DNA of 64,000 nt from Amoebophrya sp. A120 (Eukaryota; Protista; Dinoflagellata), in assembly GCA_905178155.1 (NCBI GenBank), contig CAJINV010000002.1, positions 7,594,743-7,658,742 on the forward strand, given 5' to 3'. Shown here in pieces: positions 3,001 to 59,275 of the stretch; positions within the stretch are counted from its first letter, which is position 1, and each line of letters opens with the position of its first letter. The notes beneath the pieces are model-generated. The model searched no databases, was not told the origin of the DNA, and saw only the letters and a list, made by a program, of their open reading frames with translations. Position numbers and translations under genes: made by a program.

Positions 3001-6000
3001 ACGAAACAGCAACGTTCCCTACCGGCTACATTCGTTCCATTTGTTCCACTGCGCCACGACGCAGTCCTTCGGATTTTCGCACAATGCCATCCCACACTCC
3101 CTTGTTTCCCGAACGTGGCCCAGACACGGTTCCCCGTCGTTTTTGGTCGGCCTCGTGATCCGGCGGGACCGGAACTGCTGGCCGCCACCGCATATGCATT
3201 GCAAAACAAGTATCGTACTCGTATAAATGCATTACAAATTTGAATTTCCTCAGGATGAGAAATAAAATTTGTAATGCTGATTTGACTTAACAAAAAGATT
3301 TGTAATGCATGATTGCAATACGAATACGATACTTTTGCACAGGATACCGCAGGTGCCGGTACAATCGGACCAGTCCTCCCAGTCGGAAAACTCGCAATCC
3401 TGTATGCATTGCAAATATGTCTGGGTCTGGAAGAATGCAACTTGTGATGCTGCATTTGGACTCCAAAAGAATCTGTATTGCATGAGCAGCAAAGGGAGTG
3501 TAGTTTTTGCTGCGGGAAAAGGGAATTTGTCATGCGGAATAGGCATCAAGAAGCCCTCAAGCTCAACAGATCTCTGATGCTAGGGCATGCATCACAGACA
3601 TCATGGCTCATGCAAAACTTGCATGACAAATCTAAAAATCTTCCAGACCCAGACATTTTTGCACTTGATATCCTGCTTGGGGTAGCAATCCGGCTTGCAC
3701 GCGCGCGTCTCGATGCGCGCCCCGTCGATGGTCTTGCCGCACCAGTTCGCGCTCTGTCGCAGGTTTCGCTCCCGCTCCTGCAGGCCCAGGCAGGAGCAGC
3801 TGCCCCAGGGCCCCCACTCGCTGAAGGAGGCGTCCACGCACTCGCAAGGTTCCCGCTTGCAGTGCTTCGTCTGAAATAAAACACGCGTTCTTTTTTTTAC
3901 TTTTAGCCATCCATGTTGTGCACAGGAAAAAACTCGACATCGAAGACACGGTCGTTGGAATTGGTACTTTCACAGTTGATCTTCTCGCAGCACGCGGCTT
4001 ATTCTCGACACAGAGGTCCTTGTTCTCACAGCAGAAGTTTATTCAGCTGCTTCACATCTTATCTACCTGCCCTGGTATTTCTTGTTCTTCTTTCTATCAA
4101 AATCTACTAGGAGAAGCAAGTACATCTAGGGCTACTACTACAACCCCCATCCGGCGGTGCATATATTCATCGTAGTATACCAGATACCTCCTGGAGTGCT
4201 CCATTCGGACAGGATTTCCCGCAGTCTGTGGGGAACTGGTCCAACGAGCGTTTCCGCGTAACCGAACCCGTTCCGCGTATGCATCGCAAAAGTAGTATCG
4301 CACACATAGAATTCATGTTACAGCTTGCAAGAGCATCGCATGACAATACTTCCTTCTATACCTCACTTAAGATCATGTTGGTCAATATTGATTTTCACTT
4401 TCATTACTTTTTCGAAATCTCTATTCAATTTCTGGCAAGTCTTTGTCTTGTAGATCCTTCCCAGGGCAGACATTGACATCCAGGTGGTCTATCTAAATAA
4501 TACTTTTGCGAAGCATACCGCAGGTCACCGAGCAACTGGACCACGCACCCCAGGCGCCGACCTTGCACTCCTTTTCCGCGTCGTGGTGTTCGCAGGAGGG
4601 CAGGTTATCCTCACAAGGCGCGATCTCTTGCAGGGACACCTCGGGGTATTTTTTCATATTTCCACTTGTCTATGCGTCGCGGAAGAGACAGAGGCAGTGT
4701 AATTTCTCCCTAGCCGAGGAAGACGATGCAAGATGATTCACTTCTGTGCTTGGACAGCACAGTGCACCTGCACACAGACGCTACTCAAAAAAATTACACT
4801 GAGTACGAAAAAGGACGAGAAACAGTTTTTTGGTATCTTCTATACATCTCCGCAGCCCTTTGCTTCCGGTCCGTCGGGGTATCAAATGTAAACGTGTCTG
4901 GGTCTGGAAGAATTCACGTTTGTCATGCTTGTCTGGCATGACTCTTAAATCTGTCATGCACGTTACCCAAATGCTCCGTTTTTCTGTCATGCAGAAGCGC
5001 AGCTTGTTATGCAGAATAGGCAACACCTAGGAGCTCCGAAACTTGTCATGCTGAGCCAGCATTTGTAGCCTCATCATGAGACGCCACCCAGCATCACAAG
5101 TTTCCAGACCCAGACATTTTTGCATTTGATACGGGGTACACCTCTACCAATCTGGCCCGCCTCCTCGTTCCGGCGGTCCCGCAGGTGGCAGAGCAGTCGC
5201 CCCATTTTCCCCACTCGACTCCCTATCCTGTGCAAAGGTATCGCAATCGCACTCGTAGTCTTAAACTTAATCGCAGTCGTGCGGCATGACAGTTCCTTCC
5301 TATCCAAAACTGCTGCACATACAAGGGATTTTCAATTTTATCTTTTCTTTGGAAACCAAAATTTGCCATGCGTTTACTACCACTACCAGTACGACACAAC
5401 TTTCGCGATGCGTACCACCACGCAATCCGTCGAGTTTTCGCGCAGCATGGCCTTGTAGGAATCGCGGAGGGCGCAACTTTCCACATTGCACGCCTGCACC
5501 TCCTCCATGGGCACGCCCGCGTCGTGTTCGATCTCCTTCTGGAACTCCGGCGATTCGGAAATCAGATGGTAGTGCTCCTCGGTGAGGTTTTTCCGGCGCA
5601 CGAGCTCCTCGACGTGTTTCCCGTGTTTCTCGTCAAACACGCCGATTTCGTGGCAGCCCTTGCCGCCCCTCGCCGGGTATTGGGTAATGTCCCGGTAGCG
5701 GGAGCGCACGCCGTTGCAGGTCGAGGAGCACATCGTCCAGGAGGTCCACTGGGAGATTCTGCAGTCCTGCGCGCCGGCGTACCACTCGGGACAGTGTTGC
5801 AAATTGCACGACTTGACCTCGACCAGCGCCCCGTCCTCGCACAGTTTGGGGTTTTTCCCGACCGGATTGTCCACGATTTTCCGTGTGCGCGTCTTCTCCC
5901 CTGCGCCGCAGCTGGTGCTGCACTCGCCCCAATCCGTCCACTCCGAGTACTTGCAGTCAACGGTGTGGATTTCCTTGTTAAAGTAGTTTTCCTGGCAGGG

Positions 6001-9036: not shown

Positions 9037-11847
9037 TCAATACCCGTGCACCTGCTTGACGATGGAACACACCATGGAAAACACGATCGCGACGTAGAGA
9101 ATCCACAAATTCCAGCTTTTCAGCTCCAGCGGGTTGACCAACAGGCCGAAGTACTCCCGTGCAGAGCGGTTTGCAAACAGCGTCCGCGTCTTCACCAGCG
9201 TGACGTCGAGCAGCAAGTCGCAATCATCCATACCCTGCTTCAACGCCTCGTAGATGTCCCGCTATCCTGTGCAAAAGTATCGTACTCGTATTGCAATAAT
9301 GCATCTTTTTCTCAAGGTAATCTCGCATTACAAATTTTATTTGTCATGCTTAGGAAATTTGTAATTGCATATGCATTTATACAAGTACGATACTTTTATT
9401 GCACTCACAGGATACGCGCTGCGCCCCGCCCATGTTGCCAAAGATCGCTGCCGCCGCGGCCCCCGGACCCGAGGAATAAAAACTGCCAGTACAACTGCCG
9501 TGGGAGTTGCAAACTTGCATGCCCTCGAAATACGCGTCCCGGGCCTCCTGGACACGGCCGAGGAAGAACAAAGCCGCGCCCTTCCGTGCGTACGCCCGTG
9601 GAAAAAGTGGGTTGAAGTGGATTGCGAGCTTCGCGTCGCGTAGCGAGTCGGTGTACTCTGCCAGGTTGGCGTGCGCAGCGGACCGGTTGGAATAGATCGC
9701 GGCGATTTGATTATGGGAAGCAAAAAACCATACAACATCTTCCTTGTCAAGAACGCAATTTTTGTCCTACTTTGTTCATCGTACTGCTGCACGTCAGCGC
9801 GTATAGTTGGTTTATCGTCAAGGCTCATTTATCTAGCGTAGAAGTTTGAAATCAGCGCACGAAGCCGCGAAAGCGAGGATGTAAGGCGAGTGCGGCAGGC
9901 GCAGCCAGGCGTCAGCCTACAACTGAAGCCTACCATATTAATATGTTACCTGGTCAACACTAATGCAAAATAAACTAGGGGACCAAGCACGCGAGGTAAA
10001 GGGCCTTCTACAGCCTTAGTTGGTTTCTTCCGTAGTTATTTCAAGTTCAACACGTACAAATACGTAACCCGCAAATATCTCGGTTGTATCCAATGCGTAT
10101 GAGTAGAAAGACAAAAAGCGTTGAGACTTTGAATCAAGATGTTTTTCCAGCAACATAGTGTTTGTCTTTCTCGTTCTCAGTGTCGACCGCGTCAGCAGAG
10201 CCCCCTGTGGCAGCTGCAGCTGCGCCTTTACACTCATCCGCTTCCCCTCCTGAGGTGGCGGAGGTTGCTGTACTCGTGCCGTTCTGTTCTGCATCCTCAC
10301 TGCCCTGCGAAAAATGTGCAGTTGGCGTCGACGGAGGCAATTGTTGTTCGGACTTTATTTGATGACCATGATCAACACAGGTGGTAGCTCCACCGGCATC
10401 TTCAAGTTCTGCTTGCGTTTCCTGCGACGGCGCGGCGTTTCCTTTGCCCCTTCCACTTGCGTTGTCGCTAGAGGTAGAGGAGGTTGATGAAATTCCTGTT
10501 GTATTGCGGCAAAGTCGTCTGCAGAGAGATGGATCGAGATGAACGGAAGAGAGAAAAGCACTTCAGCAAAACCAAAAGCTGCGCGACGCAGCTTTTGGTT
10601 TTGCTTTGAACAATATGCAAGAAGAAGAAATATCAAAACCGTACGTCAATTACAATTAGACATCGTGAATTGAGTCCACGCCTTGCGTGACCCGTGATGA
10701 GTAAGTACCTGCCTTCCGCTCCTGTTCTTCCCTCTCGAGCGCAATTCCAGCTGCTATGCTCGATGCCTGTCCCAGGAGCGTGAGCGCCTTGGTCCACTGA
10801 ATGATTGCCATTTCCCAGTCCCCGTCGCGGAAGGCCGCGCTCCCCGCCTCCTTCCGCAGCTCCGGCGTGGTCAGGTGTTGCGCCATCTTGTTTGCGAGCC
10901 GCTTCTTCCGCTGAATGCGCTGCCGCCGGTCCTCTTGCTCCTCGGCGCGGGACTTCGGTGACAGACAGCGGAGTTTGTCTTCTCGGGTGGGCTTTTTCGT
11001 CTTCTGTTGCAGCGACAACGCGGTGACAGGAGGGTTCGTGTTTGACGAAGTAGTACTGGAGGTAGTGTTTTCATTTTCACTAGCATCCTTCGCAGTAGCG
11101 GCGACATTTTTGCCACGCTCGGTCCATTCTTGGAATGTTTTCGGCGCGCCATGATCACGAGAAGAGGAAAGTTGGCTGAGGCTGATGCTGCTCTTGTCAG
11201 AAGAAGCGCTTGCGGCCCTGTTTCTATCGTCAGTCGTGGGGGTATCGTGGGGAAATAACGAAACAAGTCTATTTTCTTATTTCGAAAATCGTCGAGTTGC
11301 ATCAATCTTAAAAATTAGAAGTTGCACAGACACGGTCACGGCGACAAACTCTACAACCTCATAGTTGATGCATCTGTCCATGTGTCGTGACACGACTACA
11401 CTACTGATTGAAGCAGACGCAGTCGCAGAGGCCGCCGCCGTGAGCGCATCCGATATAAAGAAGAAGAGAACGGATCTTCCCACTACGATACATCATTGCC
11501 GCGCCTCCTGCGCCTCCTCCCAGCGACAAATTGGACCTCCTGGACGGAAACACCTTGCCAAAGCCACCGGCCTCCAGCGCACTACTTCCACTTTTATTTC
11601 CGCTGGCCGCGGTCTTTTCTTTGACTTTCTGATAGTCAAAAGCGTCCAGTGGGCAATGCTTTAACGGATTTTTTGGTGTGGGCGTTGTAGTTCTTTCCTG
11701 CTGGATCCGCTTCGTTATACAACCCTCGTCGTCCATCCGGGATGGTTCTGAGGGAGGTTGAGACTCTTCTCGTCGGCAAGAGTCTTCTTCTAACACCTCC
11801 AGCAACGGCTCCGCATCGGACGAGTCGGGACGACCAACGGCACCCAT
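9037..11847 (-). CDS. Multi-exon TPR-containing protein with C-terminal hydrophobic segment (5' end uncertain)
   Basis: TPR-like KEAGSAAFRDGDWEMAIIQWTKAL (10790-10865) and FFLGRVQEARDAYFEGMQVC (~9510-9570). C-terminus LWILYVAIVFSMVCSIV before the stop at 9037. Confidence 0.65.
9263..9414. mobile_element. Introner, family B; predicted canonical GT-AG intron 9262-9415
   Basis: tatcctgtgcaaaagtatcgtac...gtacgatactttt...caggata; flanks cccgc/cgcgc; GT-AG splicing gives AQRRDIYE. Confidence 0.88.
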
Positions 11848-28705: not shown

Positions 28706-31700
28706 TCATTCGGCGTCCTCATCTTTTTCAAAATTCGGATCGAGCGCGAACTCCTGCATGGGCCTGGGCACCAAGGGTACGTCGTTCGCCATCTCCATCA
28801 GATTGATGCAGGAGTCCTGGCGCTGCTTCTGCTGCCGGATCGACCGAATAAAGTCAACTTCGCCGAACCGCTCCACCTTGGTTCGCCGACGGGCCGGAAT
28901 GGTTATGTATTGATGCATCCACTGTGGCAGCTCGTCGATTTCTGTAGGTGGATAATTATGTGCCCGTTGGCCCATACAACATGGGTAATCAGAAAAGCAT
29001 TTTGCGCAAGAAGATCTTCTAGAAACCCATACTAGACGAGAAGGCAACTACCTTCGTAGGGACTGGCTATCGCATCGAGAACTAGGTCGATTGTCAGCTA
29101 CCCTACTTTCTTGCCCTTAGTCTACTTCTGAGCATGGACAAAGAAATTCGGTCGTGCTTGACCTATACTAGCCCGAACCCATGTCTACCCAGCCGCTGTC
29201 TTCTTGTTTCAGGTGATACTGCTACTGGCATTTCATTGCTTGTAGAAGATAGATATAGTGGTAGTGCCTCTCTTACCGTTGGAAAAAGAAAAAGGAGACG
29301 AGATGACGAGAGAAACGACGAAAGCGTTCAGCGGCATCGACAGATAGCAGTCGCGGAGTATTGCGCAAGGCATGAGTGATGCGATATTAAAGCAGGCTCT
29401 ACACCTATCTTCTACGGACATGAAATGAGAATGACATGAAACAAGAAGAAGCTTCGACTCTAGGAAGTTCTTTTTCACGACACACCCACGACCCAGACGA
29501 GGCAATTTTCTACTTGTAAGAGAGGCACTACACTACTTCATACTCGGGAATCTATGATGAGATTTCGCTCGTGCATTTGAATTCCCGCAGCCATTCATCT
29601 TCTACAGGCAATGAAACACAATCAAAGCAGACAAGAAGACAACAGCATGCTAGAAAATACATTGAAATTCCGATTTCTCTGGAATCGTCACGTAGCGCTG
29701 CATCCACTTTGGCAAGTCGCGTATGTCTGATCGCAAAAGATAAAGATTTCAACAGCATAAAACGCATGACAAAGTTCCAACTTTATCCTTTTTGACGCTG
29801 CAGCGGTGCATTCGCATAATTTCAGAAAAAAAATTTACGAAAACAAAATGACCACACATTCACTAATATACTTCCGACGTTGGGCGCGACCCGATCAGTG
29901 TACTGACCGGCGTAGGTCAAGCCAATGTTGTGCCGTATCTGTGCGTATCAAATGCAAATGTCTGGGTCTGGAAGAATGCATGTTTGTCATGCTTGTCTGG
30001 CATGACTCTTAAATCTGTCATGCTTAACAGACTGCGCAACTCTTAAATCTGTCACGCACGTTACCCAAGTAGAGCTCCACTTTTCTGTGATGCAGAAACG
30101 CAGTTTGTCATGCAGAATAGGCAACACCTAGAAGCTCAGAAACTTGTCATGCTGAGCCAGCACTTGTGGCCTCATCATGAGACGCCACCCAGCATCACAA
30201 GTTTCCAGACCCAGACATTTTTACATTTGATAGTGCGGACGTGATGTGTTGGGGTATTCTCGGGACGTTCTCGTCGTTAATGCCGTAGTTTGTTGGCTGC
30301 ACGCCTAACCGCAGGTAATCGGGCACCTCGTTCACCGGGAGGGGTGGCGCAGCCATCATATTGCCAACTGGATCTGAGAGTGAGACATCGTCATCGATTG
30401 AGCTGTATTTCTCTCCTCTGTCTTTCACAAAACATGATATATCAAAATCTGATGGCATTTCCGTGCTTGCAACTGCGCGTGTGTACTAACACTAAGTGTA
30501 ACAAAACAAGAACATAAACATTACTTCCATCCGCCCCCAACATGGGTCCACCGCCGCCGCCGCCCATCATGCCGGCGCCGCCCGGCATGCCCCCGCCGGG
30601 CATGCCCATCATGCCGCCGCCCATTCCCGCGTCGCCGTTCATGATCCGCGCCACCGTGGAGGACCCGTGGTTCATTAGGCTGGGATGGCCGACCAGGTTC
30701 GGTATGCTCTGTTGCTTGATCATCGCAGCTGTGTCTGGGTCGGCCATGTGGTCTATTGGAAGGGAACCCAGATCGGCGGCTTCGTCGCCCGGGTTCAGAG
30801 AGGCTGTGTTTCATTCGATAAGGATAGACAGTATTAGTATTTCTAATTTATATTTTGTTGTACGCGGGTCGTGTGGTGCCGGTGCGCAGCTCTGTTATAC
30901 AGTCTGGCGTTCTTCGCATTCGGGCATTCATCGCGTTAGATTGTTGCGAAGTCACTTGAGTCCGGGGTACCCGGATATTTGAGAAAACAGACATCATCAA
31001 AAATCAAATATTGTCTTCGTCTTGAACTTCATGGCCGCATCGTGATCGTCTTACAAGAATATACGCAAAGTTTCATACAGTAAAGAGCTGTACCCTTCGC
31101 CTTTTCTTCGGCTTGTCTCCGGGCCTTTTCGAGGGTGAAGTCTGGCCAGACGCCCTGTTTGAAGTCGTAGTGACCCATCCTGCGCTGCCATATGGCGTTC
31201 TCAAACGTTACACTCTCAAGCTCAACTGTTACATGGATTTGTGATGCAAATTAGCCATGCATATCTACACGATCAAGCTGCTTCGCATGACAAGTTCGCG
31301 ACTTGCTAGATAGCATGAGAATCTACGCCAAACCTGTAATGCAAAAGGCGCAATCTTCCCCCTTTCAATTTTGCCACTCTTGCATTACAAATTCACGTAA
31401 CAGTTGAGAATGTAACATTTGAGAACTCCATATGCCACTGGTTCAGGTTCGCACGCTGGCCGCCAAAGGTGTCTGGAATGAGCAGGTCTATGGAAGCGTC
31501 AGGATTGAAATCCTCAAAGTTGAAATAATTTCTCATGCAGAAATTGCAAGGCATGAAGTGCCTCTGTTGCAGGGATTACAAATGAGGCCGATTGTAAGCC
31601 TGTTTCGGGTTTGGAATAGAGCTGCTAAAGTAGCATCACAAAAGGCGCCTTCTGTTCCTAAACAGCATGACAAACCGGTTTTAGACGGTGCCGAAATTTG

Positions 31701-34829: not shown

Positions 34830-37489
34830 TTAATTTCTCGCGTTTTTCCTATTTTGGTCATCCTTATTTCCCACGAGAGCAAAAGCATCGGAGTAGGCCC
34901 CGCCACCCTTTGCTTGCGTTAACTTGTTGGACATCATCGTTCTGTAGTCGGCTGAAAAGTCTTCCAGCCGTGCGTGGTCCACGTACCACGGTAAATGTCG
35001 GGCCTCAAACTTCGGACCAGCCACGCGTAACGTGTGCCGCACGCCGCGCACCCACTGCGGATTGTGGTAGCTGCATTTCGCCTGGTACATGACCGCCGCT
35101 GTGTCGACGGGGGACACATAGATGTCCAGCTCGTTGGCCGCGATCGCGGCCGCTACCTTCTCAACTTGCACTTGTCGTTCCGCCGGCGTCTTCGACCGCG
35201 TGCCGAAATCCTTTGGGTCCAGATGACCATCGAACCAGGTGGCGCCGTGGTTCAGCTGCCTCGCCCGCAGTAACGCCAGCTCGTACTCGAAGCTCTTCGC
35301 CTCGCCCCGACTGTTTCGCAGGCCCGCGAGATGCTTGCGGAGGGGCTCCAAAGCGGCCTCGTTTGTGGCTGCGAAAAGCTTGGACTGCTGCTGATAAGAG
35401 TTGACGCCGACTGCTCCATGTGTATTTGACGTAGTTGAGGCGCTGGTCGTTGTACTAGGGCTAGTGCTATCGGAAGGCAAAGCATTAACATGTTGATTCT
35501 CGTGAAGATACAATGTGTGAGTCTCGGGCTCGCGAGTCAGCGTGTCGTAGTGGCCGCGCAGCGTCTTCTCAATCGCCGTGTTCCAACTGATACGCGGCCT
35601 GAGAGACTTCTGCACGTCCTCGTGCAGAGAAGTTATTGCTGACGTTCCCTCCTCCACCTCGTTAGACCGTGGTACGCTTGCCGTGCCGTTCACCGCACTT
35701 GCGGCTGCAAAGTCCAGCTTTAGAAGCCAAAACCGGAGCTCTCGATCCAAGACGAGTTTTCGCTGCTTGTCAGATGGTTTTATCGGAAAAGAAACGGCGT
35801 TCTTACCAGGTGCCGCAGAACTGGTCTTCATCTGTGCCACCTCGGACTGGTCATCAAGTCGGAGAGTGACGTCTTCGGTCGCATACGAGCTGAGCTCTAG
35901 TGACCTTCTGCCCCCGATTGTCCGAGCGTATGGACGACCATTTCCACTTGTTGGATCCCCTTGCTCCGCATGATCAAGACCTTCTGCTGGCGCTCTTTGT
36001 CGACTATAAGTTGTATTCATATTCTCATGATCCCCATAGTCAAGAAGATCGCTTTTCCTTTTCGTGACCACCAGCTTTGTGGTGTCTAAATCGTCGAGCT
36101 TCAAGGCGGGCGCGACTTTGAGGATGTGCGGAAACAAGTCCAGCAGGTCGTTGAAGACGTAGAACCACTGCCTGCCCTCCGGAAAGAGCACATCCACGTC
36201 CGACACCACAAACCGCCTGCCGTGTATGTCTGCCGCGTGGGTGAGAACCCCACCGTAGGACTGCCACAAAGCGTAGCACCCGTCGTTGCGGTAGATGCGG
36301 TGCAGCGTGAAGTTCGCCGCTGCTTCCTTATCGCGAGAAAAAAGCGTTTACAGTTTGTTACACATTTGTTGGATTTTCTGCATCACAAAGTTGCTAGACA
36401 TGGCAAATTATCAAACCTGTGATGCGCAGACTATAAGGGAAAACACGAATGACATGAGGTTGGCAAGCGTTTCCTGCATGACAGAGTTTGTCTGTCTTGC
36501 TTGTCTCCGATCAGAGTGTGTAACTGTAACACTTTTTTCTCAGGATATTCCTCGGAATTGTAGTAGTAGTCCAGAAGCGGCGGATACGAACTGTTGTTGT
36601 CAATCACGTGCAGGTTGTAAAAACCGTTCTTGACGAGGTTCCGAATTTTCAACTTCAAAAAATGCAACAAGTTGAAATTCGTCGTGATAATCGGAATGGA
36701 CGCGGGGCGAGTGCGCTCGTGGAGAATGTGCTCATCGGCATGTCTGATACTGATGCCGGGGCCGGGTAAACCGCGGCGCCGACGTCGACGCTTGTTGCTT
36801 ATTATCTCGTCTGCATCGCCTTGTTCATCTCCTGTCGTGACTGGAAGTAGATCTTCCTCGGGGTCGTGCTCCCTCTGCTCGTGGTCTTCATTCCCAGCTA
36901 GCAACCGCAATCGCTCGTCGTCTTCGTCATCTTCTTCTGCCGCTTTCGACACCTCCGCGATGGTTTTTGCCAGAGGGTGGTAGTTCTCGTGCAGTATGCT
37001 ATCGATGCGGGCTTTCGGCGGTCGACCTTTGATAAAAACGGACTTATGTGCCCACACTACGGGTGGCGGGTGGCCGGCGCGAGGGTACGTGACAATGTGT
37101 TTCGTGATGCGATACCCACGGCGACGCTTGCGTCGTGTTGGAGGTAGGGGAGTAGACACATATGGATCATGTGACAGTTCTTGTGCTGCCGCGACCGGGG
37201 GCTTTGACGATGAGTAGAGTGCAAGCGCACATTCCACCAGACTGGTAAAAACAAATCTACCACGGCGACGAAGAAGGCAAAACCACGAAAAACATCGAAA
37301 TATGACGACTGAGGACGTTGACAAGAACGTGGATGTTGCTCTTGACCTGGAGCGTCGCCGCCAATGACTGATGACATGACGATCACATTTGCCCGACGAG
37401 TACGAATTGACTTTCTCCATGGGACGATCGATCTTCACAAAACGGCCAAAGCTTGTTCTACCTCCAGTATGAAAATCGCACGTATCCAT
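34830..37489 (-). CDS. Glycosyltransferase family 2-like (GT-A fold) protein, two exons; start uncertain
   Basis: Motifs IPIITTNFNLL, HVIDNNSSYPPLLDYY, VVSDVDV (DxD), KVAPALKLDDL, PVDTAAVMY and ARHLPWY. Exons are in frame after removal of introner 36329-36547. Confidence 0.75.
36329..36547. mobile_element. Introner (possible GA-AG intron)
   Basis: tatcgcgagaaaaaag...cttttttctcaggata; perfect TSD ttcct; excision restores NSEEAAANF. Confidence 0.9.
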
Positions 37490-37977
37490 CGCATCATTTA
37501 CTGGGGTTGAAAAATCAGCAGGGCGCTTGAACTGCACTGCTATATCCCAAATTGAACTCGAACATCACTAGCGAGGCCAGCCTCTGATAAAAAGATGACA
37601 TCAAACGCGCTCAACATCTGCGGCGCAACCGTAGTTTCTTTCCTTCGTACTTACGAAATAGATCTTCATGTCGTCGTCGCGGCAAGGAGGGTACGAATGC
37701 AGGTTTTTGGGAATACGGATACAGTTTGTGAGGTAGAACTGAGAGTGGCCAGGGAGGAAACGTCGGGGACTCAAGAAGCTTTCTCTGGGCGTGGGAAGAG
37801 ATGAAGTAGGAAATCACAGAAGGTTTTTCTTCTTTATCTTCTACTTGGGCTTTCAATTCTTTCCAGAAATTCTTACGCTTATTCAACACATCGCCAGGGG
37901 GCTCTTCGTCTTGGTGTTTCTGCATCTTCACTGTTCGCATGAAGAGAATATTAAACCGCGCCAGAAGTAGCCGGCCT

Positions 37978-44222: not shown

Positions 44223-47200
44223 TCACCGCCCGAACTTTCGCTTGGCGCCGTAGCACAGGGCCAGTTTTTCCGGACGCACGATGTGGGGCCATTTCTCCTT
44301 CAGGTAATCCATGAGCTCTTCTTCCGCGTTGTGCAGGATTCCAATCTCGTACACGTTCCAGCCCTGCTTCGTCTCCTGCTGCAAGACTTCCTCCCGAAAC
44401 TCGTCCCCGTCTTCGTATTGCAGGCGAATGGAGAGCAGAGTCACGGTCTCTCCGGACGACGCGGCAACGTGCGCCATCAACGGGTTCCAACCGTTCCGGT
44501 CCTGGATGGACACGTCCCCATGCGATTTCACCAACAGCTGCGTAATTTCGATCGCGGTGTCGACCCTGGGCGGTAGTGTTTGGTTCAAGAATAATATGGT
44601 TTTCATTTCATACTAGTGTCAAAAAGTGTGTCCGAAAAATTGCGGTCGTCTTGAACATCATGCGGTCACTGCTGCAATTATTTAGAGACAAATTTTTGGA
44701 AGCGTACAACTCGAAGTTGTTCGACTTGTAGAACATTTACAAATACATAGAAGCGAACAAGAACAAGCAGCCCCGCTACAAAAAATTACTGCAAGCTCGT
44801 GGGTTCCGCGGCCGTTGCGATGAGGTGCAGCAAGGTTCGGTTGTTGTACTCGGGGTACTGGTGATTGATCAAATCCACCCGCAAACACGCGGCATGCTGT
44901 CGGAAAGTGACAAAGTCGCACTTCAACACCGTCTGCAGTGCCGCCTTCTGGTAGTGCTCTTTCACCTTCGGGATGTGGTCGGTCAGCAACCGGATCGCCG
45001 CGTTGGACTTCGCGCCGTACGGCGAAAGTTTTGCGAGCTCCTCCTGCTCCTTCTCTTGCCGTCTCCGTTTTCGCTCCTGCTTCTCGTCGTCGTCCTCCTC
45101 CGGACCGGAGGTTTTTGACCCAGCGCCGTCGTCTTTGGAGCCTGCCTTGGAACTCGTCTGATCCTCGTCCTCGTCGGATTCGTTCAACAGAACTAGGTTG
45201 ATACTTTTGTACAGGGACAATAACGCCGACCGTCCCTCGTCGTTGTTGTTCAAATGCACGCCACAGAGCACCGGGGTCAGCACGACCTTAAACTGCTCGT
45301 CGTGCTTGTTCCGCGACGATTCGGAGGAATTTTCCGTGGCTTCGCGGTTCTCCTTGGGCTTTGGCGGGACGTACTCGGCCAGTCGCATGTAAAAAATCGG
45401 CTGTCCGGAGAACTTCCGGTTGTACGCACGCATGGTGTAACGCACACTGTCGGTGTATCCAGGAAAAAACACCCATCCCCATCCAATTTGTCATGCAAAA
45501 CGTGCATAAATTCCACTATTTTTCATGCAAAAAATGGATGGGGATGGGTGTTTTTTCCTGGATACGGTGGTGTACGCCTGGAGCCGCCCCAGGTCGCGGC
45601 AGACGAGGTGCGACGAGTCCGGAGAGTCGTAAAACTGGAGAGAGGATAAAAATAAAAAACGTTGAGCAGTGCATATCAAAAATAGAAAAGCGATCTATGG
45701 TATGATCATCATCATGTGCCTTTAGATGTTGAACAAAACCGCTAAGTAATTGTCACGACTAGCCCACACGTACCTTTTTCAATCTCTGCCTGGACCACGG
45801 TATGACGGATTCTTTGATCCCCTTCTCCTCCTCTTCTTCCGCTCCCTTCTCTTCCTCCGCTCCGGATTTGAGCAAATCCGCAATCAAGTCGCCGGATTTC
45901 TCCGAACCGCCATCTCCCTTGTTTTCCTCCTCTTCTTCCTCCAAATCTGCGGGGTCTTCCACCGTCTCGTCAGGAATGGTTTCTGACAGTATGTAGTCCG
46001 CCAACTCCTCCGGCGTGAGTTCTTCTTCGATAAAGTGCTGGGTCTGCTTCTCCTCTCCATTGCCACCTGCGGTCGTCCCATTGCCTCCAGCAGCTCCATT
46101 TTCAACGGAGCTGGCCGGGCTGGCGGACGCGATGACCGGGCTTGAGATATTGAGCGTGACTTTCGCCGGCGCACTGGTTCCCGTCCCGTCGTCCAGCATG
46201 GAAGCGAGCGCTTGCTGCTCTTCGGACATGTTTTTGTCGAAGTTTTTGTCCTCCACGGTCCGCGTCACGCGATCCGGGTCCCACCGCACGTCCAGCATCA
46301 ACAAGCTATCCTGTGCAAAAGTATCGTACTCGTACTCATTGCAAATATGCATGACAAATGTTTTTCCGAAGCAGCAGCAGGGAAAACAGCATTACAAATT
46401 CCACTTCCCCTCTTGCCAGCAAAATTTGTGATGCAATTTATACTAGTACGATGCTTTTGCAATGCATACAAGTTCTCCGCGAACAACTTCGCGCACACCT
46501 GCTTCGGGTCCCATATCAAGTGCAAAAATGTCTGGGTCTGGAAGGTTGCAACTTGTGATGCTGTCTTTGGAAGGTAGGAGAAATCTGTATTGCATGACCA
46601 GCAAGAGGAGTTCAGTTTGTGCTACGCGCCGGAGTGGGCGTCTCGCATGCGGAATACGCATCAGAAGGCCCTTTAAAAATCTGTGATGCTAGGCCATGCA
46701 TTACAGGCAGTATGGGTTATGCAAAATATGCATGACAACCCTGGCAATCTTCAAGACCCAGACATTTTTACATTTGATATCCCGGGGCGGGGGATTGAAG
46801 TAGGCCGCGGGCAGGCCGGTTTTCTCGAACTGTTTCCGGGCCTCCTCGCTATCCGGCGGTGGGACGGCGTTTGGAAAGTAGAAGTCGAAGGGCTCGAGCG
46901 GCACCGCGAAATTGCTCGCGGGAACGGAATATGAACTGCAAAAGTATCGTAGTCGTATAAATGCATTACAAATTTCCTCAGCATGAGACATAAAATTTGT
47001 AATGCGGGTTTGCTTGTAATGCATGATTGCAATACGAGTACGATGCTTTTGCACAGAATACGGAAAACTCCCGCTCGCTGGCGTTCACACAGTAATCGCT
47101 GACCCGGGTCAGCGACAGGTTCGTCATGCGGTCGACCATGAAAGTTTCCCCAATGCAGTTGAACTCGAAGTTGTACCGTCCGGCCGTTTGGAGCGAGGAA

Positions 47201-49496
47201 GGACCTTTTATTTATATTTGGTGTTGATATCGACTTTCTGGATTTCAACTCATTGCGTTGCTCTGCAGCGTACTTTTACGACCTCGCCCGCTAGCTCTCT
47301 ATCTCGTTTCGGTTTCCTGGATCATGAAACAAGGATTAACGAGGAGGAGGAGGACGGAGGTGGGCGGAATCGGAAAATAAACTCTTATCTTGTCGTTGAA
47401 ATAGATCTTCACGTTTCCTAGCTTCTAATATAAAAGCCTTACCACCGCGCAGCTTGACGATGCACTTGATTTTTTTCGCCTGTCGGTCGTTTATGATCGT
47501 GTGCGCAGAGGACAACACGTACACGTTGTCCGGATCGCAGGGGCAGTAGACCAGCGTCCCCACGCCGATGAGTTCGGTCTGCGCGTGGTTCGTCAACAGG
47601 GCCACCGCGGCGAAGGCCCGGTTGATCTCGCGCGCCTTCATCCTTACCGGCAACTGGTTCCGCGGATCCACGAAACTCCGGTCGTGCCAGGGCGTTTCGT
47701 TGATGCCCTGCACCCCCTCCAATTTCCGCCGCGTTTTCTTCTTGAGCCGACCGCTATGGCGTTCTCAAACGTTACATTATCAACTGTTACGATGAATTTC
47801 TCATGCAAAAGTGCCTGCAGCCGGCAGATGATCGAGCTGCTGCGCATGACAAACTTCGGAAGAGCTAAACAGCATCTAAATCTTCTGCGCCAAACTTGTA
47901 ATGCAAAAGGCGCAATCTTCCTCCTGTCACTTTTGCCATTCTTGCATCACAAATTCATGTAACAGTTGAGAATGTAACGTCTGAGAACCCCATAACCGTA
48001 CTGGTCAAACTCGGGCTCCGCGTCCGCCTGCTCCATATCCTGTGCAAAAGAAGTATCGCACTCGTAGTCGTACTAATTGCAGTATATGCATGACAAATCT
48101 TCTTTTCAAAGTAAAACAGCATGACAAATTCCATTTCTCAACATGCTGAGCAAATTTGTAATGCAATTTGTACTAGTACGATACTTTAACTTTTGCAGTT
48201 CATACTCCATCTCCGCCTGCCATTGCGCCATGCGCTTCATCTCCTCCTTCTTCGCCGCTTTCTCTGCCTCTTCCTGCTCAATCGCGAACTTCGAACCGAG
48301 AATCTCGGTGTTGTTCTTCGCATCCAGGTCGTAGTCCTTTTTCCAGTTTAACGACTTGTTGACTTCCGGCTCTTTTTCAACGTTTTCGTCCTCGTCGCTG
48401 CTGAACTCCGGCTTCGGTTTATTTGGCTTGAATCCGAATCCGTCGTCGACTTCTTTGTGACGTCGTGCATTTTCGTCTTCTTCGCCGGACGAGGTACCGA
48501 TTTGGAACAGTTGCTGGATTTGCGCGCCCAAAACGTGCTCGGCAAAGTCGTTGCCGCTCGTGTTCGAAACGTTCGCGTTGAACACGTTGTCCACGGCGTT
48601 TTCGTACACATTTGTCAACTATCAAATGCAAAAATGTCTGGGTCTGGCAGAGTCATGCTGTTTTTGCATGACACAGAAGGTCTGGCATGAGAGCTCTAGC
48701 ATCATAGGTTTCGAGAAGCTTCCGCAATGCCGAACCCGCATGAGAAGTCCCCTACTTTGGTGACAGAAAGTGGGCAGCTTTTGCTGCCCATGCATGAGAG
48801 ACTTTTCTGCGTTTCAAAATACGCATCAGAAGTTCGGATCCTTCCAGACCCAGACACTTTTGCATTTGATATCAACCTGGCGATCTCCTGGTCTGCGTCC
48901 TGATCGAGGGTGGAGAGCGGCCCCATCATCTCCACGGCCTTTTCGAACTGGCCCTGGAGGACATTGTCAATGAACTCATCATCCACCTGGTACATCCTCT
49001 TCTTCGCCTCATCGATCGCCGCCTGCGTCTCAGCGGACACAATCACCTTCTCGCGCGGCTTGTGCTTGTCAACGTCGGCGTCGTCGTTTTTCGGGTCATT
49101 ACTTTCATCCTTAGCCGCCGCGGCAGTGCCGAGCGCGGCTCCTGGGGTGGCGTTCCCTTCGCCGTCGCCCTCTGGTGCTGGCGCACCATTGGGGTCTTCT
49201 GCATTCGGGAGCGGAGCTTGTTCTGCGTCTCCTGGTGAAGACTCTGGCGCAGTTTTTTCCCCTTCTGCTGCACCACCCTCATCCGGGGCGGCTTCGTTTG
49301 TCGCCGCATCTGCGTTTTGCGTTTCTGGTGCAGCAGTTGTAGCACCACCGCCAAGAACTCCTGCATCATCTGGTGGTGATGCTGCTTGATCAGCACCAAC
49401 ATCATCCGCAGCTGGGACAGCTGCTGGCGCTGCTGATGCATCTTCCGCTTTTTCTTCGTCACCGCCCTCGTCAGCGCCAGCTTGCTCCTCCGACAT
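44223..49496 (-). CDS. Multi-exon acidic protein with trypsin-like (PA clan) domain and C-terminal ankyrin-like repeats
   Basis: About 11 exons join in frame after removing seven introners and three other introns. Motifs VLSSAHTI, FSGQPIF, VLCGVH; ankyrin-like RTLLHLIA and QDRNGWNPLMAHVAA. Confidence 0.7.
45456..45564. mobile_element. Introner, family E (109 bp, almost wholly palindromic)
   Basis: tatccaggaaaaaacacccatccccatcca / tggatggggatgggtgttttttcctggata; perfect TSD cggtg; excision restores AYTTDSVRY. Confidence 0.93.
46307..46468. mobile_element. Introner, family B; predicted canonical GT-AG intron 46306-46469
   Basis: tatcctgtgcaaaagtatcgtac...gtacgatgcttttgcaatgcata; flanks caagc/caagt. 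Confidence 0.9.
46514..46779. mobile_element. Introner, family A2
   Basis: tatcaagtgcaaaaatgtctgggtct...agacccagacatttttacatttgata; flanks tccca/tcccg; homologous to 3403. Confidence 0.92.
46930..47060. mobile_element. Introner, family B
   Basis: tatgaactgcaaaagtatcgta...tacgatgcttttgcacagaata; perfect TSD cggaa. Confidence 0.92.
47755..47994. mobile_element. Introner, family C; possible canonical GT-AG intron 47754-48001
   Basis: Homologous to 31191; flanks accgc/accgt. Confidence 0.9.
48036..48204. mobile_element. Introner, family B
   Basis: tatcctgtgcaaaag...cttttgcagttcata; perfect TSD ctcca. Confidence 0.92.
48620..48871. mobile_element. Introner, family A2-like, in reverse orientation relative to 3403 and 46514
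   Basis: Family A TIRs; perfect TSD tcaac; right half matches the reverse complement of the left half of 3403/46514. Confidence 0.92.
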
Positions 49497-49916
49497 GGTG
49501 GCAACAACTAGTACAAGTACTTTCTAGTTCTACCAAGAAAAAGATACGAGCATAATTGGTCGTAAAGAAAAGAGTGAGCAGATCACTTCATGATGATCTC
49601 TTGATTACACAAAACAATACGTTTTTGTCATGCTCAACAACAAGGCACGCTAACACATGATTTTTAGTAAAAGTGTTTCTAAATGCGATTTATCAAATTA
49701 CACAGTATGCTGGTGGTCGTGATTCCTACGCGAACAACAAGCAGAATAAGACACCGGCCCGCGCAAAGGACTCTCAGTTTATTTCATTTTGTAGTTTTTC
49801 AATTTCCGGTGAAATTGGAAAAAACAATGCGCCAAACATATTCAGCTATGCTGTTCTTCCTATCCTGATCTGATGTTGATCATGTTCATCGCAAATATCT
49901 TGAACATCACCTTCAA

Positions 49917-51572
49917 TCATGCCTCCGCCCCCACAAAGAGTTGCTTTTGGTTCTGCTGCGACAAAGCCGCGTAGTCTATGGGGACGTCTTTCTCCGCTTC
50001 CGGTACGAACACGGCGACCGCGACGAATATCAGCAGGTACGCGAAGACGAAGGTGATGCAACTCGTCCACCCCGTGGAGGAAAGTTGCGTGTACAGCGTG
50101 TCGATTTTCGACACCGGGTCTTGGACCCACGTAAAGAAGAGCGGGTGCTTGGACGGAAGCCCGAACTCGTTGCTCCACTGCTCGACGCCCAGCCGGTAAA
50201 AGGCGCGGTCCTCGTCTTTTATCAGCCGGAGACCTCAACAGGAACAGATTTACGTAGTTGCATTATGAGTTTCTCTCTACTAACTAGTGTTGGTTCTGAC
50301 GGTATTACATATACACACACGACTTTGATCGAAAACACACACTTTGATTGCATGAAATCGAAATCCACGACGAACAAATCGAATTCCAACCTGCCTTCGC
50401 CACATTGTTGTCCACCTCGCCGCATTTGAATTGATCGCCGCTCGGCTGACAGCAGTCCGTCCCTATTGCCCAGAAGTCGAAGGTGCCGCTATTTGGCAAG
50501 ACTAACCTCGTGGCCTCGCCCTGTAAAGGCTGCCCGACTATTGGAGCCACGCAATACGTCTTCGTATCTCGGAATGCGCGCGCGGATTCCGTTGCTACCT
50601 GACAGAAGTAAGTGACACTTGCGGTCATGAACTGAAGTGCTAAGGCCACTTCACGGGCATGGCCATCTTCTTCATGCTCCACCTTGTCATTTCAATTTCA
50701 GACTCACATGGACATTTCAATCCTGTTTTTTCAGGACCTGTAATCAACCTGTCGTAGTCAATCACCGAAGAAAATTCCAAAAACAAGCTGCAACATGTCA
50801 CTTACCCGCGTTCCCTGTTTAAAGTACAGCACGCCAGCGTCCATGTAGCTTTGTCCTTGCGCGTTTGCAGGGTCGATCAGAACGTAATCCGCCAAATCCT
50901 GGTAGGTGTACCAGTCTTTTGCGTACAGCGAATACAGCGACCTCCCAACCGCGTAACCCCCGATCAACCCCGCGGTCATATCAAATGCAAAAATGTCTGG
51001 GTCTGGAAGAATTCATGTTTGTCATGCTTGTCTGGCGTGACTCGTAAATCTGTCATGCACGTTACCCAAGAGCTCCGTTTTTCTGTGATGCAGAAGCGCA
51101 GTTTGTCATGCAGAATAGGCAACACCTAGGAGCTTAGAAACTTGTCATGCTGAGCCAGCATCTGTAGCCTCATCATGAGACGCCACCCAGCATCACAAGT
51201 TTCCAGACCCAGACATTTTTACATTTGGTAGGTCAGGCCGAGCGACAGCACCGCGTGCCATTTCACGTTGAAGAGCCGGTTTCTGCGCCATTTGTACCCG
51301 ACGAAGGAGAGGTGCCAGAGGTAGAAAAAGACGAACCAAAAGAGGATCACATCGGCGACATGCGGGAGTTCGTGGTAGAGTCGGAAGGCGAGGAGGTAGA
51401 CACACGCGCAGAACACGATTGGCGGCAGAATAAAAACGACCAGAAGTGTCCCGTTGTCGACGGAAAGCTTAAAGAGTGATTTAGGTGGTGGTGGGGAGGG
51501 AGGTTGGGAGGCGCCGGGGGGTGCGGCGGTGGCGCTGTTACCTACAACTCCTGGGGCGGCGCCGTACAACAT
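49917..51572 (-). CDS. Multi-pass membrane protein with Cys-containing lumenal domain (about 4 exons)
   Basis: Three N-terminal TM segments, YCVAPI...DFWAIGTDCC...FKCG region and one C-terminal TM. In frame after removal of introner 50979. Confidence 0.8.
50979..51230. mobile_element. Introner, family A1
   Basis: Near-identical to 4880; perfect TSD ggtca; excision restores LGLTAGLIG. Confidence 0.95.
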
Positions 51573-58061: not shown

Positions 58062-59275
58062 TCACTTGACGTCCCTCGCCACGGACCCGAAGTCCGGTGC
58101 GCCGCTTTGGCTCGCCGGCTCGACGGTCGTCGTCGTGCCTCGAGCAGCACTGACGACCGAATTGGGTGGATTTGCTATCATGGACTCCGAGGGTCTCGTG
58201 ATCTTGCCGGGTCCCCGCAAACTCGGCGTCGCCCGGTCCACCAAGGAGCCAGGGGCGGGGGCCATCGTTGCCGTCGAGAACGCGTTTGCCATGGTAACCG
58301 AATGGCTCGTAATCTTCCCGGCATCGCCTGGTACCCGCACACTCGGCGTCGGTCGCTCCATCAGGGAGACCGGGGCCTGCGTCATCGTTGAAAAGGAGCT
58401 CCCGGTCGCCCCGCCGTCGGATTCCCGTACTACCGATCCTTCGGCCTGCTGCTGCGACGCCATCGCAGCCGAGCCGCGGGTCGTTTCGGCGCCGGCAAAC
58501 GGCTGCTTTTCGCCCGCGACCCCGATGGAGGTCGGCTCCGGCACGCCCGCCTGGTCCGTATCGTACAAGTCTCCGTCCACGTCACCCTCGTCCGGCTGTG
58601 TCACCTCGGACGCGATCTATGCAGAGCAAAAATAACACCGTAACTCGTTCTTTCCATATTAATTATATTCATCAAATCCTTGTTCTACTGCACTGCTGCA
58701 GCCGCGATGTTGGGGCAACAGTGACGACTGAGTCTGACGCGCAGACACATGGGGAGGCTATCACTCAATTACTACCTAGTACAGTTTTATTTTTGCATGC
58801 CCAAATTTATAGTCGACATGAGTTGCCATGCTCGACAACAAGGCGGTCAAAATGGGAAGACGAACTAAGATGTTAATGTTTTCGCACAGGATACAATCTT
58901 CTGCCTGCTCAAGACGCAAAACAGCAGCCCGGCGATACACAGTACGATCACCCCGCCAATCACCGGGCAGAACACCAGACAACAGCACATGTTCCAGAAG
59001 AGCTTTTGCTTCTTCGTTGTCTGCGTGTCCACATTCTGGGAGATCGGCTCCGCATGGTGCTCGTTTTTGTTTTTGTCTATCACGACAACTCCGCCCCCGC
59101 GCAGACCGCTGTTCGCGCTCCCGTACTGCATAGTGTAGCCGTATTGGTCCGTGATCGGGTAGCCACTAGTGGGTGAGACGTGGCGCGCAGCCTGTGCGAC
59201 GGCAGCCGCGCCGCCCAGATGCCCGTGGGTTGCCTCGTATTTTACCCATTCGATCGGAGCTGGGGTTTTGATCAT
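58062..59275 (-). CDS. Two-exon hypothetical membrane protein
   Basis: ATG 59275; Cys-rich TM segment CCCLVFCPVIGGVIVLCIAGLLFCVL; exon 2 is in frame after intron 58617-58894. Confidence 0.7.
58618..58893. mobile_element. Decayed family-B-like introner; predicted canonical GT-AG intron 58617-58894
   Basis: tatgcagagcaaaaataac...gttttcgcacaggata; flanks cgatc/caatc. Confidence 0.8.

Follow-up and report, generated by a model that had tools for sequence, protein, structure and literature searches.

Introner elements with TAT...ATA ends and 5-bp duplications in minus-strand genes of Amoebophrya sp. A120

The window, the whole 64,000-nucleotide stretch of Amoebophrya sp. A120 contig CAJINV010000002.1 that was analysed, carries 22 introner elements of 109-308 bp, spread over positions 3193..58893 and all located in minus-strand genes. 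A first scan required TA..TA ends, terminal inverted repeats (TIRs) agreeing at ≥12/16 positions and, on the flanks, a 5-bp repeat mismatched at no more than one position; it returned 16 matches, compared with 0-2 per Markov-1 shuffle (n = 20 shuffles); restricted to a perfect repeat, it returned 9 matches, and none in 20/20 shuffles. Searching the window with the elements by BLAST, reading of the sequence and RNA joints extended the catalogue to 22. Each element is flanked by a target-site duplication (TSD) of 5 bp (22/22; 12 perfect, 10 with one or two mismatches), and in gene orientation the ends read TAT...ATA in 19 elements and TAC...ATA in three. An earlier note, made from the letters alone, had described 20 elements of this size with TAT...ATA (or GTA) ends and a 5-bp duplication that was perfect in 12; the sizes, ends and duplications are borne out and the number of elements was too low, so that the observation is confirmed and was slightly understated.

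The elements are listed below, each in a minus-strand gene, with both copies of the TSD and the evidence at the junction. Joints are those of contigs from four RNA-like runs (X3-X6), all of one sample, whose RNA status is a guess and which may be the data underlying the published annotation.

3193..3346, 154 bp: introner element, family B; TSD CCGCA/CCGCA; TSP1 homologue HSPs span the junction after removal
3403..3670, 268 bp: introner element, family A2; TSD TCCTG/TCCTG; TSP1 homologue alignment
4278..4517, 240 bp: introner element, B-like ends; TSD CCGCG/CCGCA; TSP1 homologue alignment
4880..5131, 252 bp: introner element, family A1; TSD CGGGG/CGGGG; 93.7% identity to copy 50979; TSP1 homologue alignment
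5224..5414, 191 bp: degenerate element, B-like ends, plus-strand GTA end; TSD CTCCC/CCACC; sole copy with a possible GT-AG register; TSP1 homologue alignment
9263..9414, 152 bp: introner element, family B; TSD CCCGC/CGCGC; BLAST and sequence reading
29946..30232, 287 bp: introner element, family A1; TSD GTGCG/GTGCG; joint 29940/30233 skips 292 nt, 4/4 RNA-like runs
31191..31432, 242 bp: introner element, family C; TSD TGCCA/TGCCA; joint 31185/31433 skips 247 nt
31489..31796, 308 bp: introner element, family D; TSD AGGTC/AGGTC; joint 31483/31797 skips 313 nt
31934..32135, 202 bp: introner element; TSD GGGAA/GGGAG; joint 31928/32136 skips 207 nt, with 4 nt of freedom in its placement; DNA-like contig traverses the element
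32492..32707, 216 bp: introner element, plus-strand GTA end; TSD ACTTC/ACTTT; joint 32486/32708 skips 221 nt
32943..33141, 199 bp: degenerate element; TSD TTGTT/TCCTT; joint 32937/33142 skips 204 nt, with 1 nt of freedom in its placement
36329..36547, 219 bp: introner element; TSD TTCCT/TTCCT; X3 contig pieces 34646-36323 and 36548-37451 adjacent in the record
45456..45564, 109 bp: introner element, perfect 35-nt arms; TSD CGGTG/CGGTG; joint 45450/45565 skips 114 nt; annotated protein agrees
46307..46468, 162 bp: introner element, family B, orientation opposite to 46930; TSD CAAGC/CAAGT; joint 46300/46468 skips 167 nt; annotated protein agrees
46514..46779, 266 bp: introner element, family A2; TSD TCCCA/TCCCG; joint 46508/46780 skips 271 nt; annotated protein agrees
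46930..47060, 131 bp: introner element, family B; TSD CGGAA/CGGAA; joint 46923/47060 skips 136 nt; annotated A120 protein points to an intron of 130 nt
47755..47994, 240 bp: introner element, family C; TSD ACCGC/ACCGT; annotated protein equals the model minus 245 nt; X3 record length fits, joint not displayed
48036..48204, 169 bp: introner element, family B; TSD CTCCA/CTCCA; annotated protein equals the model minus 174 nt, joint not displayed
48620..48871, 252 bp: introner element, family A3; TSD TCAAC/TCAAC; X3 contig piece begins at 48872; annotated protein agrees
50979..51230, 252 bp: introner element, family A1, plus-strand GTA end; TSD GGTCA/GGTCA; sequence only
58618..58893, 276 bp: degenerate element, B-like ends; TSD CGATC/CAATC; sequence only

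Removal of elements together with one copy of their duplication restores reading frames in the host genes, as the earlier note had observed. An ORF of 498 aa then runs over nine junctions, six of which are elements, and another of at least 1102 aa runs over ten, seven of which are elements. The full spliced model of this second ORF equals an annotated A120 protein at 1102/1104 residues; that protein carries the name 'unnamed protein product [Amoebophrya sp. A120]' and shows 100% identity to the translation of one exon. Homologues of TSP1 align in a single frame over the five junctions at 3193-5414; these junctions rest on homologue alignments because no annotated protein for the TSP1 gene was retrieved within the length ranges searched. 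Standard gene finders will misread the genes that bear these elements.

The elements are built as MITE-like transposons, with inverted-repeat ends, a TSD whose length does not vary, a high copy number and, at 109-308 bp, no coding capacity. Word depth in the DNA-like run is ~239,000 over the elements and ~45 in unique DNA, and family-A ends recur in public contigs, in at least 185 additional stretches. Across another 517 kb, drawn from related contigs (hereafter the loci), the perfect flanking repeat peaks at n = 5, with 185 cases compared with at most 6 at n = 3, 4 and 6-9, and TAT..ATA ends are present in 213/224 supported elements. The TIR profile reads T1 A2 T3 S4, followed by variable positions and A11-14 (T3 in 93% and A11-14 in 77-95% of 44 window ends, with similar values in 208 bait-free locus ends), and the TIRs are family-specific beyond position 14. 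The interiors share an internal motif, GCATNACAA (GCATNAC), which is common to 17/20 interior-sequence clusters of otherwise unrelated families in the loci and has 71 matches in 19/22 window elements, at 14.8 per kb compared with 0.9 per kb outside. A full-text literature search for the motif together with Amoebophrya returned nothing beyond a primer of unrelated use, and the repeats are not among the text passages of Farhat 2021 (PMC7789003), whose figures could show the motif.

The fixed 5-bp TSD, the shared ends and the common motif lend plausibility to the suggestion of the earlier note that a single type of transposase mobilises all families, although the enzyme itself was not found among the ORFs searched in the window and the 517 kb of loci. 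Pfam searches recovered no transposase among 36 window ORFs (TSP1 and RING/DUF2921 only) or among the 137 longest of the 180 locus ORFs of at least 200 aa, which matched host genes only; no TA..TA element of 1.5-12 kb bounded by a 5-bp TSD was detected, and Rfam reported no family at gathering score in the window. One TSD-bounded element of 1104 bp was present in the loci (L028:505-1608), and its ORFs are low-complexity only. A possible asymmetry in the decay of the duplications was also considered: 6/12 mismatches in the window adjoined the gene-strand 3' element end, all six of them transitions; the 39 one-mismatch duplications in the loci gave counts by position of 10, 4, 10, 10 and 5, and the pattern was dropped as chance.

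At 11 elements the RNA-like contigs skip exactly the element length (L) plus 5 nt, with every displayed joint inside the 5-nt duplication, and 10 of these 11 joints are present in 4/4 RNA-like runs. The same contigs also skip five CT..AC introns, which are GT-AG introns on the minus strand. Three further elements (47755, 48036 and 48620) are backed by the annotated Amoebophrya sp. A120 protein. RNA-derived evidence covers 14/22 elements; the other eight are the five at 3193-5414 and those at 9263, 50979 and 58618. Canonical introns do exist in these genes, and ordinary distant GT-AG sites could have been used with the elements as mere intronic passengers; the chance of this is negligible overall, given the L+5 joints in 11/11 displayed cases and the fit of three more elements to the annotated protein, and the reading is refuted for the 14 elements with RNA-derived evidence. 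Two raw RNA runs with the same species label, X9 and X10, gave 14 reads and one read, all partial and covering repeat ends only, and are uninformative for the locus.

Copy 32943 is excised despite a duplication that has decayed to 3/5 matches. Its 5' cut falls at the first base of the element or one before, and its 3' cut 4-5 nt past the last base, giving an intron that reads TA..AA or AT..CA on the gene strand. Removal is not always exact: at 46930 the contigs remove 136 nt, whereas the 130-nt intron of the annotated protein retains both duplication copies, in a register 6 nt off. This copy and 46307, both of family B, lie in opposite orientations within one gene and both are excised, and element orientation is unbiased across the further loci (56 same, 42 opposite).

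GT-AG is absent from all six exact gene-strand registers in 21/22 elements, the exception being 5224; at 31489, GT..AG occurs on the plus strand only, the wrong strand for its minus-strand gene. The earlier note had counted 14 copies with no GT-AG option, an undercount, and the pairs it had named (GA-AG, GT-CG and GT-CC) are among the possible ones here. The introners of Micromonas, Aureococcus and Polarella are likewise short non-autonomous TIR transposons with TSDs that make introns on insertion, and they supply or co-opt GT/GC/GA-AG for ordinary splicing (Huff 2016 and Roy 2023, as described in passages of PMC11282704 and PMC12130899). Unlike these, in which GT-AG or GY-AG is carried by the element or made by the TSD, the window elements offer a GT-AG register in 1/22 cases and are removed in both orientations.

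Excision might instead take place in the DNA of transcribed nuclei, in the manner of ciliate internal eliminated sequences (IESs). The IESs of Paramecium have TA-bounded ends and leave one repeat copy behind, features that the window elements resemble. This is scarcely credible here, however, as a DNA-like contig (31769-36402) traverses elements 31934, 32492 and 32943 at a depth of 43.7, equal to that of the neighbouring unique contigs, a comparison in which rare empty sites would be masked by repeat cross-joints.

All 22 elements fold end to end, with 18-30 of the first 30 nt paired to the last 30 nt and a terminal helix that closes at or near the first and last base of the element (22/22). 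The median folding z-score is -6.9 for the 22 elements, compared with +0.36 for the five canonical introns of the same genes. Wobble pairs in the window number 43 G.U and 30 A.C, and the sense strand is the more stable in 15/22 elements, a weak excess (p=0.067). In the loci, the same test on 153 copies gave 124 G.U and 133 A.C, and so no support for RNA-level selection on the stem, with counts that are non-independent since mismatches are shared at family level. The set is what was left of 223 copies once 53 had been dropped for weak strand scores and another 17 for having under 20 Watson-Crick pairs; the gene strand was assigned by a codon classifier that placed 20/22 window elements correctly. 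The proposal of the earlier note that hairpin and repeat together may guide excision is in agreement with the L+5 joints, excision in both orientations and unbiased orientation in the loci; the G.U/A.C test and the register 6 nt away at 46930 speak against it.

A different account of the gaps is that they do not reflect splicing, and that a polymerase jumps between the 5-nt repeats across the hairpin, whether reverse transcriptase, as a library artefact, or RNA polymerase. Template switching at a hairpin between short direct repeats is expected to lose the hairpin and exactly one repeat, as is seen here, and all joints fall inside the repeat. Even so, we regard such jumping as very improbable. 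Retention would shift the frame in the 16/22 elements whose L+5 cannot be divided by 3, and stops occur in nearly all elements, yet long frames persist over 18 junctions, those of the annotated-protein match and of the TSP1 homologues among them; copy 32943 is removed with repeats at only 3/5 matches, and the 130-nt variant at 46930 retains both repeats. Passages of Farhat 2021 (PMC7789003) also put the number of such read-supported introns in the tens of thousands.

The elements of the window are already known, in that they belong to the published Amoebophrya introner elements (Farhat 2021; BMC Biol 19:1, PMC7789003). The passages of that paper drawn on here give the A120 inverted-repeat motif as TAT, seven less conserved nucleotides and at least three As; they describe inverted repeats of 8-20 nt that form a hairpin, direct repeats of 3-5 nt that overlap the exon/intron borders (5-bp direct repeats in the legend of Fig. 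S19) and non-canonical ends. The earlier note had placed the elements among the TIR/direct-repeat non-canonical introns of Amoebophrya, and the fit to the A120 motif and the identical A120 protein uphold this. Organism, motif, 5-bp direct repeats, end-pairing hairpins, non-canonical ends, an average of ~240 nt, very high copy number and many families all agree, as does validation by RNA with no GT-AG (at 14/22 elements). Nothing essential differs from those passages; in our data the duplication is exactly 5 bp and the TIRs are family-specific past position 14.

On the machinery of removal, the same passages state that U1 is missing from Amoebophrya and that nearly all spliceosomal proteins are present together with U2, U4 and U6, plus U5 in A120, and they favour a modified spliceosome (Farhat 2021, PMC7789003). 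Set against this near-complete spliceosome is the prospect of removal independent of it, in which an endonuclease would cut a set number of nucleotides away from the base of the terminal helix, and the exons would be joined by a ligase. The lack of GT-AG in 21/22 copies, excision in both orientations, helix closure at or near the element ends and, in copy 32943, a first cut 0-1 nt ahead of the helix and a second 4-5 nt beyond it are all compatible with it. So are the nonconventional introns of euglenids, which share non-GT-AG borders, end pairing, TSD-like border repeats and a suspected MITE origin, and which leave as full-length circles with no lariat, after the conventional introns and possibly independently of the spliceosome (passages of PMC11282704). 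Euglenids are, however, a different lineage with a different code. In Euglena, CAG/CTG is needed at +4-6/-8-6 and the intron must be followed by a purine (Nomura 2025, PMC12501133), and its signature 5'-N3-CDG ... CHG-N5-6/R is missing from the window ends, which read TAT-S...A-run with long helices and have S-M-W at positions 4-6, with G6 in just 6% of ends. Overall, we consider spliceosome-independent removal possible, if rather unlikely.

Taken together, these results make it highly probable that the elements are 22 copies of the published A120 introner elements, whose mobilisation is likely due to a single kind of transposase and whose removal from the pre-mRNA likely reads the hairpin and not GT-AG. 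A DDE-type transposase, perhaps an integrase-like or a Ginger-like one, would insert them through a staggered 5-bp cut and may bind the shared internal GCATNACAA repeats. Once transcribed, the paired ends would juxtapose both duplication copies, and the cuts would be measured from the base of the helix by a U1-less spliceosome or another machine. Both ideas, the single transposase and hairpin-guided excision, already stand as hypotheses in passages of Farhat 2021, which report no transposase in A120 (PMC7789003). The Ginger-like affinity is suggested, as a possibility, by the label of A120 family fam38 in a 2025 PNAS dataset ('Ginger; 5-bp TSD, TA/TA Termini'; passages of PMC12130899) and by its 5-bp TSD. 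That family shares the genome, TA termini, 5-bp TSD and mostly non-conventional splice sites with the window elements; compared by description only, it differs in being ~808 bp long with Copia/Gypsy-integrase-like ORF fragments, whereas the window copies, at 109-308 bp, lack any ORF of that kind.

A broader reading, which we hold to be doubtful, would unite all families in one TAT...ATA superfamily through the GCATNACAA sites and a single integrase-like transposase, and would see in their removal a third kind of nuclear intron excision. Such excision would be symmetric, orientation-blind and measured by the hairpin, with a 5' cut at the first base and a 3' cut five past the last, and would proceed with no spliceosomal recognition of splice sites, with either an endonuclease and a ligase at work or a polymerase that jumps from one pentamer to the other.

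Amoebophrya is the clearest case of transposons turned into introns in which the near-universal GT-AG is absent, and the precise removal of tens of thousands of inserts bears on how introns arise and how flexible splicing can be. The window holds no new kind of thing, yet it offers concrete handles on the question of removal. What it adds to the known system is small: the exact 5-bp duplication (185 further copies), excision in both orientations, the internal motif, a copy that pins the cuts and a junction 6 nt off. The conserved motif GCATNACAA could guide a full-genome search for the mobilising element. The copies with decayed duplications (32943, 5224, 9263 and 58618) allow unambiguous reading of cut sites, and further handles are provided by 46307 and 46930, in opposite orientations in a single gene, and by the junction at 46930 with its two competing registers.

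The window is eukaryotic in character, with about 52% GC and no N, and every stop-to-stop frame of more than 400 aa lies on its minus strand. Domain searches place TSP1 repeats and a DUF2921/RING ligase in these long frames, and the translation of exon 48873-49523 is 100% identical to a stretch of a 1104-aa "unnamed protein product [Amoebophrya sp. A120]". A script set to find TA...TA ends with terminal inverted repeats matching at 12/16 positions or more, flanked by a 5-bp repeat with no more than one mismatch, recovered 16 elements, against 0-2 per Markov-1 shuffle (n = 20); with a perfect repeat required, there were nine elements and none in 20/20 Markov-1 shuffles. BLAST within the window, reading of the sequence and RNA joints added six, most of which have a decayed duplication or a repeat with an indel. 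The final catalogue comprises 22 elements, 109-308 bp long, that lie between 3193 (start of the first) and 58893 (end of the last). The earlier note's description, of about 20 introners of this size between the same outer limits, with TAT...ATA ends and a 5-bp target-site duplication perfect in 12, is upheld well beyond chance; the duplication is perfect in 12/22 and carries one or two mismatches in 10/22. In gene orientation, 19/22 elements have TAT...ATA ends and 3/22 have TAC...ATA (end profile T1 A2 T3 S4, then variable positions, then A11-14). Their interiors fall into at least seven groups by similarity, among them three A subfamilies, B, C and several singletons. BLAST finds one family in both orientations within the window. 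Every one of the 22 folds on itself from end to end, 18-30 of its first 30 nt being paired with its last 30; the median hairpin z-score against dinucleotide shuffles is -6.9, compared to a median of +0.36 for five ordinary introns in these genes.

Removal of these elements from RNA was examined in public sequencing runs. Two DNA-like runs contain 0.86-0.87 of the words searched, and four runs from one sample, taken as RNA by guess, contain 0.55-0.57. Contigs of reads were considered for positions 29900-49899, which places elements 3193-5414, 9263, 50979 and 58618 outside this evidence. Among the joints listed for this interval, those at at least ten elements are present in all four RNA-like runs.

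Joints in RNA-like contigs (window positions of the flanking bases, length skipped, element).
29940 to 30233, 292 nt skipped, element 29946
31185 to 31433, 247 nt skipped, element 31191
31483 to 31797, 313 nt skipped, element 31489
31928 to 32136, 207 nt skipped, element 31934
32486 to 32708, 221 nt skipped, element 32492
32937 to 33142, 204 nt skipped, element 32943
45450 to 45565, 114 nt skipped, element 45456
46300 to 46468, 167 nt skipped, element 46307
46508 to 46780, 271 nt skipped, element 46514
46923 to 47060, 136 nt skipped, element 46930
36323 to 36548, element 36329, one further joint, besides the ten in all four runs

At all ten elements the skipped length equals that of the element plus 5 nt, and the joint can be placed anywhere inside the duplication. 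Also missing from these contigs are five introns with CT..AC on the plus strand, equivalent to GT-AG for minus-strand genes; this is good evidence that the RNA-like runs are cDNA. A DNA-like contig (31769-36402) runs uninterrupted through three elements and the ordinary introns, with a depth like that of neighbouring contigs. Support derived from RNA extends to 14/22 elements, in part not independently of the published annotation. Raw RNA runs under the same species label, including run X9 from another sample, contain hardly any reads matching the window and are uninformative for it; the X9 reads that do match cover just the end of element 46514 (46746-46781) before running into unrelated flanks. 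The X9 sample accordingly appears to transcribe copies of the family and not this locus. Word depth reaches ~239,000 over the common families, against ~45 in unique sequence, which fits thousands of copies, although such depth sums are crude.

When exons are spliced as these joints show, a 498-aa frame spans nine junctions, of which six are elements. For the next gene, a spliced model lacking seven elements and three ordinary introns equals the annotated A120 protein at 1102/1104 positions, and this match backs exact removal at 47755, 48036 and 48620. In the TSP1 gene, taking out each element with one duplication copy lets homologues of other organisms align in a single frame over 5/5 junctions; no identical annotated protein was retrieved for this gene in the length ranges searched. 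Retention would shift the frame in 16/22 elements, and nearly all elements contain stops. The exception to exactness is element 46930, where the annotated protein has two extra residues (SV), corresponding to an intron of 130 nt (46928-47057 through 46930-47059) whose removal leaves both duplication copies in the message, while the RNA-like contigs of the four runs take out 136 nt. There are thus two registers at 46930, at least on paper, and exactness is not universal; the discrepancy reflects either alternative registers or a choice made in annotation.

Across the six exact-removal registers on the gene strand, GT-AG occurs only in element 5224, and none of the 22 elements offers GC-AG or AT-AC. 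Element 31489 reads as a GT..AG intron only on the wrong strand and was rejected as such. Both the claim that removing an element with one duplication copy restores the frame and the claim that most elements lack GT-AG accordingly stand, the latter for 21/22. The decayed copy 32943, with AAGGA/AACAA on the gene strand, fixes the joint within one base: the intron is TA...AA or AT...CA, with the 5' cut at the first base of the element or one before and the 3' cut 4-5 nt past its last base. In the four one-mismatch copies with joints, the duplication copy of the 5' exon stays in the message, which is compatible with the 32943 register.

To extend the sample, public metagenome contigs were scanned with the family-A end, which gave no fewer than 185 stretches; 181 loci from these were kept (517 kb, overlapping). 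Loci and window have only elements in common. Among 552 TA...TA inverted-repeat pairs in the loci, a perfect abutting direct repeat was found 185 times at length 5 and no more than six times at lengths 3, 4 and 6-9; the duplication is therefore exactly 5 bp, not "3-5". The ends are TAT...ATA in 213/224 supported elements, the majority 100-350 bp long, and the insertion target shows a weak C...G symmetry and no other consensus. Relative to the inferred gene strand the loci elements lie in both orientations (56 vs 42), with no single family significant, and in the window two family-B copies of opposite orientation, 46307 and 46930, share a single gene and both are excised. As removal is blind to orientation, symmetric signals at the ends are favoured over directional splice motifs.

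Families otherwise unrelated have in common an internal motif, GCAT[G/C/T]ACAA(R)TT (GCATNACAA repeats), which is repeated several times, in both orientations, its first copies lying 30-50 nt from the element ends.

Examples of the internal motif.
4922-4928, internal motif
4936-4942, internal motif
30000-30006, internal motif

In the window there are 71 matches in 19/22 elements, or 14.8 per kb against 0.9 outside (~16-fold); in the loci 17/20 clusters contain the motif, with densities of 8-22 per kb for the larger clusters listed and a background of 2.5. The total is 875 matches in 245 elements. One variant, GTAATGC, looks like the genome's canonical 5' splice sites (GTAATG, GTAATT) but is unused by the RNA contigs. 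Subterminal repeats occur in other DNA transposons, and by analogy the motifs are candidate transposase-binding sites; a role in RNA processing is possible. A full-text literature search, covering the text of Farhat et al. (2021), did not bring up the motif in connection with Amoebophrya.

Two signals in the window did not survive the larger sample. Clustering of duplication mismatches beside the 3' end of the element vanished in the loci, and an excess of sense-strand G.U over A.C in the stem (43 vs 30), suggestive of selection at the RNA level, was null in 153 loci copies (124 vs 133). The search for an autonomous element proposed earlier was run on the window and loci contigs: 36 window ORFs and 137 of the 180 loci ORFs of at least 200 aa yielded no transposase, nor was there a long element with these TA..TA ends. 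The longest duplication-bounded TAT...ATA element recovered (L028:505-1608, 1104 bp, duplication GCAAC) has ends similar to family D and a GC-rich interior with low-complexity open frames only, with no Pfam match.

Amoebophrya, a parasitic dinoflagellate, is reportedly where such introns were first described. The text of Farhat et al. (2021; PMC7789003) reports that >60% of A25 and A120 introns are non-canonical, with 29,850 repeated introns in A120 (17% of the assembly, 1954 families), inverted repeats of 8-20 nt and direct repeats of 3-5 nt; the legend of its Fig. S19 refers to direct repeats of 5 bp. It describes the elements as MITE-like, with exon ends possibly brought together by hairpins, and A120 as having no detected transposase and no U1 snRNA. 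Dataset S2 of Gozashti et al. (2025; PMC12130899) lists 58 introner families in A120, and labels fam38 as Ginger, with a 5-bp TSD and TA/TA termini; the paper notes homology of fam38 to Copia/Gypsy integrase regions and states that the family lacks typical Ginger termini. The system is already known, and the earlier note's interpretation, mobilisation by one transposase type and excision guided by the hairpin and repeat, is reasonable but essentially the published hypothesis (Farhat et al., 2021). The most likely account has two parts: MITE-like elements would be inserted by a transposase making 5-bp staggered cuts, perhaps integrase-like, and removed from pre-mRNA by a GT-AG-independent step reading the paired ends, whether by a U1-less spliceosome or another machine. 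Outside the lineage, the nearest parallel is the nonconventional intron of euglenids. Its CAG/CTG code is absent from the window elements. The exact 5-bp duplication, orientation-blind excision, the internal motif, and one pinned and one alternative register are small new points, leads for experiments and not a new finding in themselves.

The window also carries repeats of other kinds. Between TSP1-coding stretches, a ~660-bp inverted-repeat element (1707-2364) has 83-nt arms that are 95% complementary and ends starting TTA(A)GAACGGGG, with no clear 5-bp duplication visible; these ends resemble the 'TTA + two purines' type, which the text of Farhat et al. (2021) assigns to strain A25 and not to A120. 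At 61654-63065 lies a satellite whose palindromic units (CAAAATTTGAAAAGATGCTGAAGGAGCATCTTTTCAAAATTTG-like) have periods of 66, 85, 129 and 253 bp and form one hairpin each. Dense short tandem repeats at 24381-25982 (periods 16, 26, 48, 57 and 70 bp) show a very strong A-over-T skew of +0.46, and, as 6/6 frames are open there, this region may be repetitive coding sequence.
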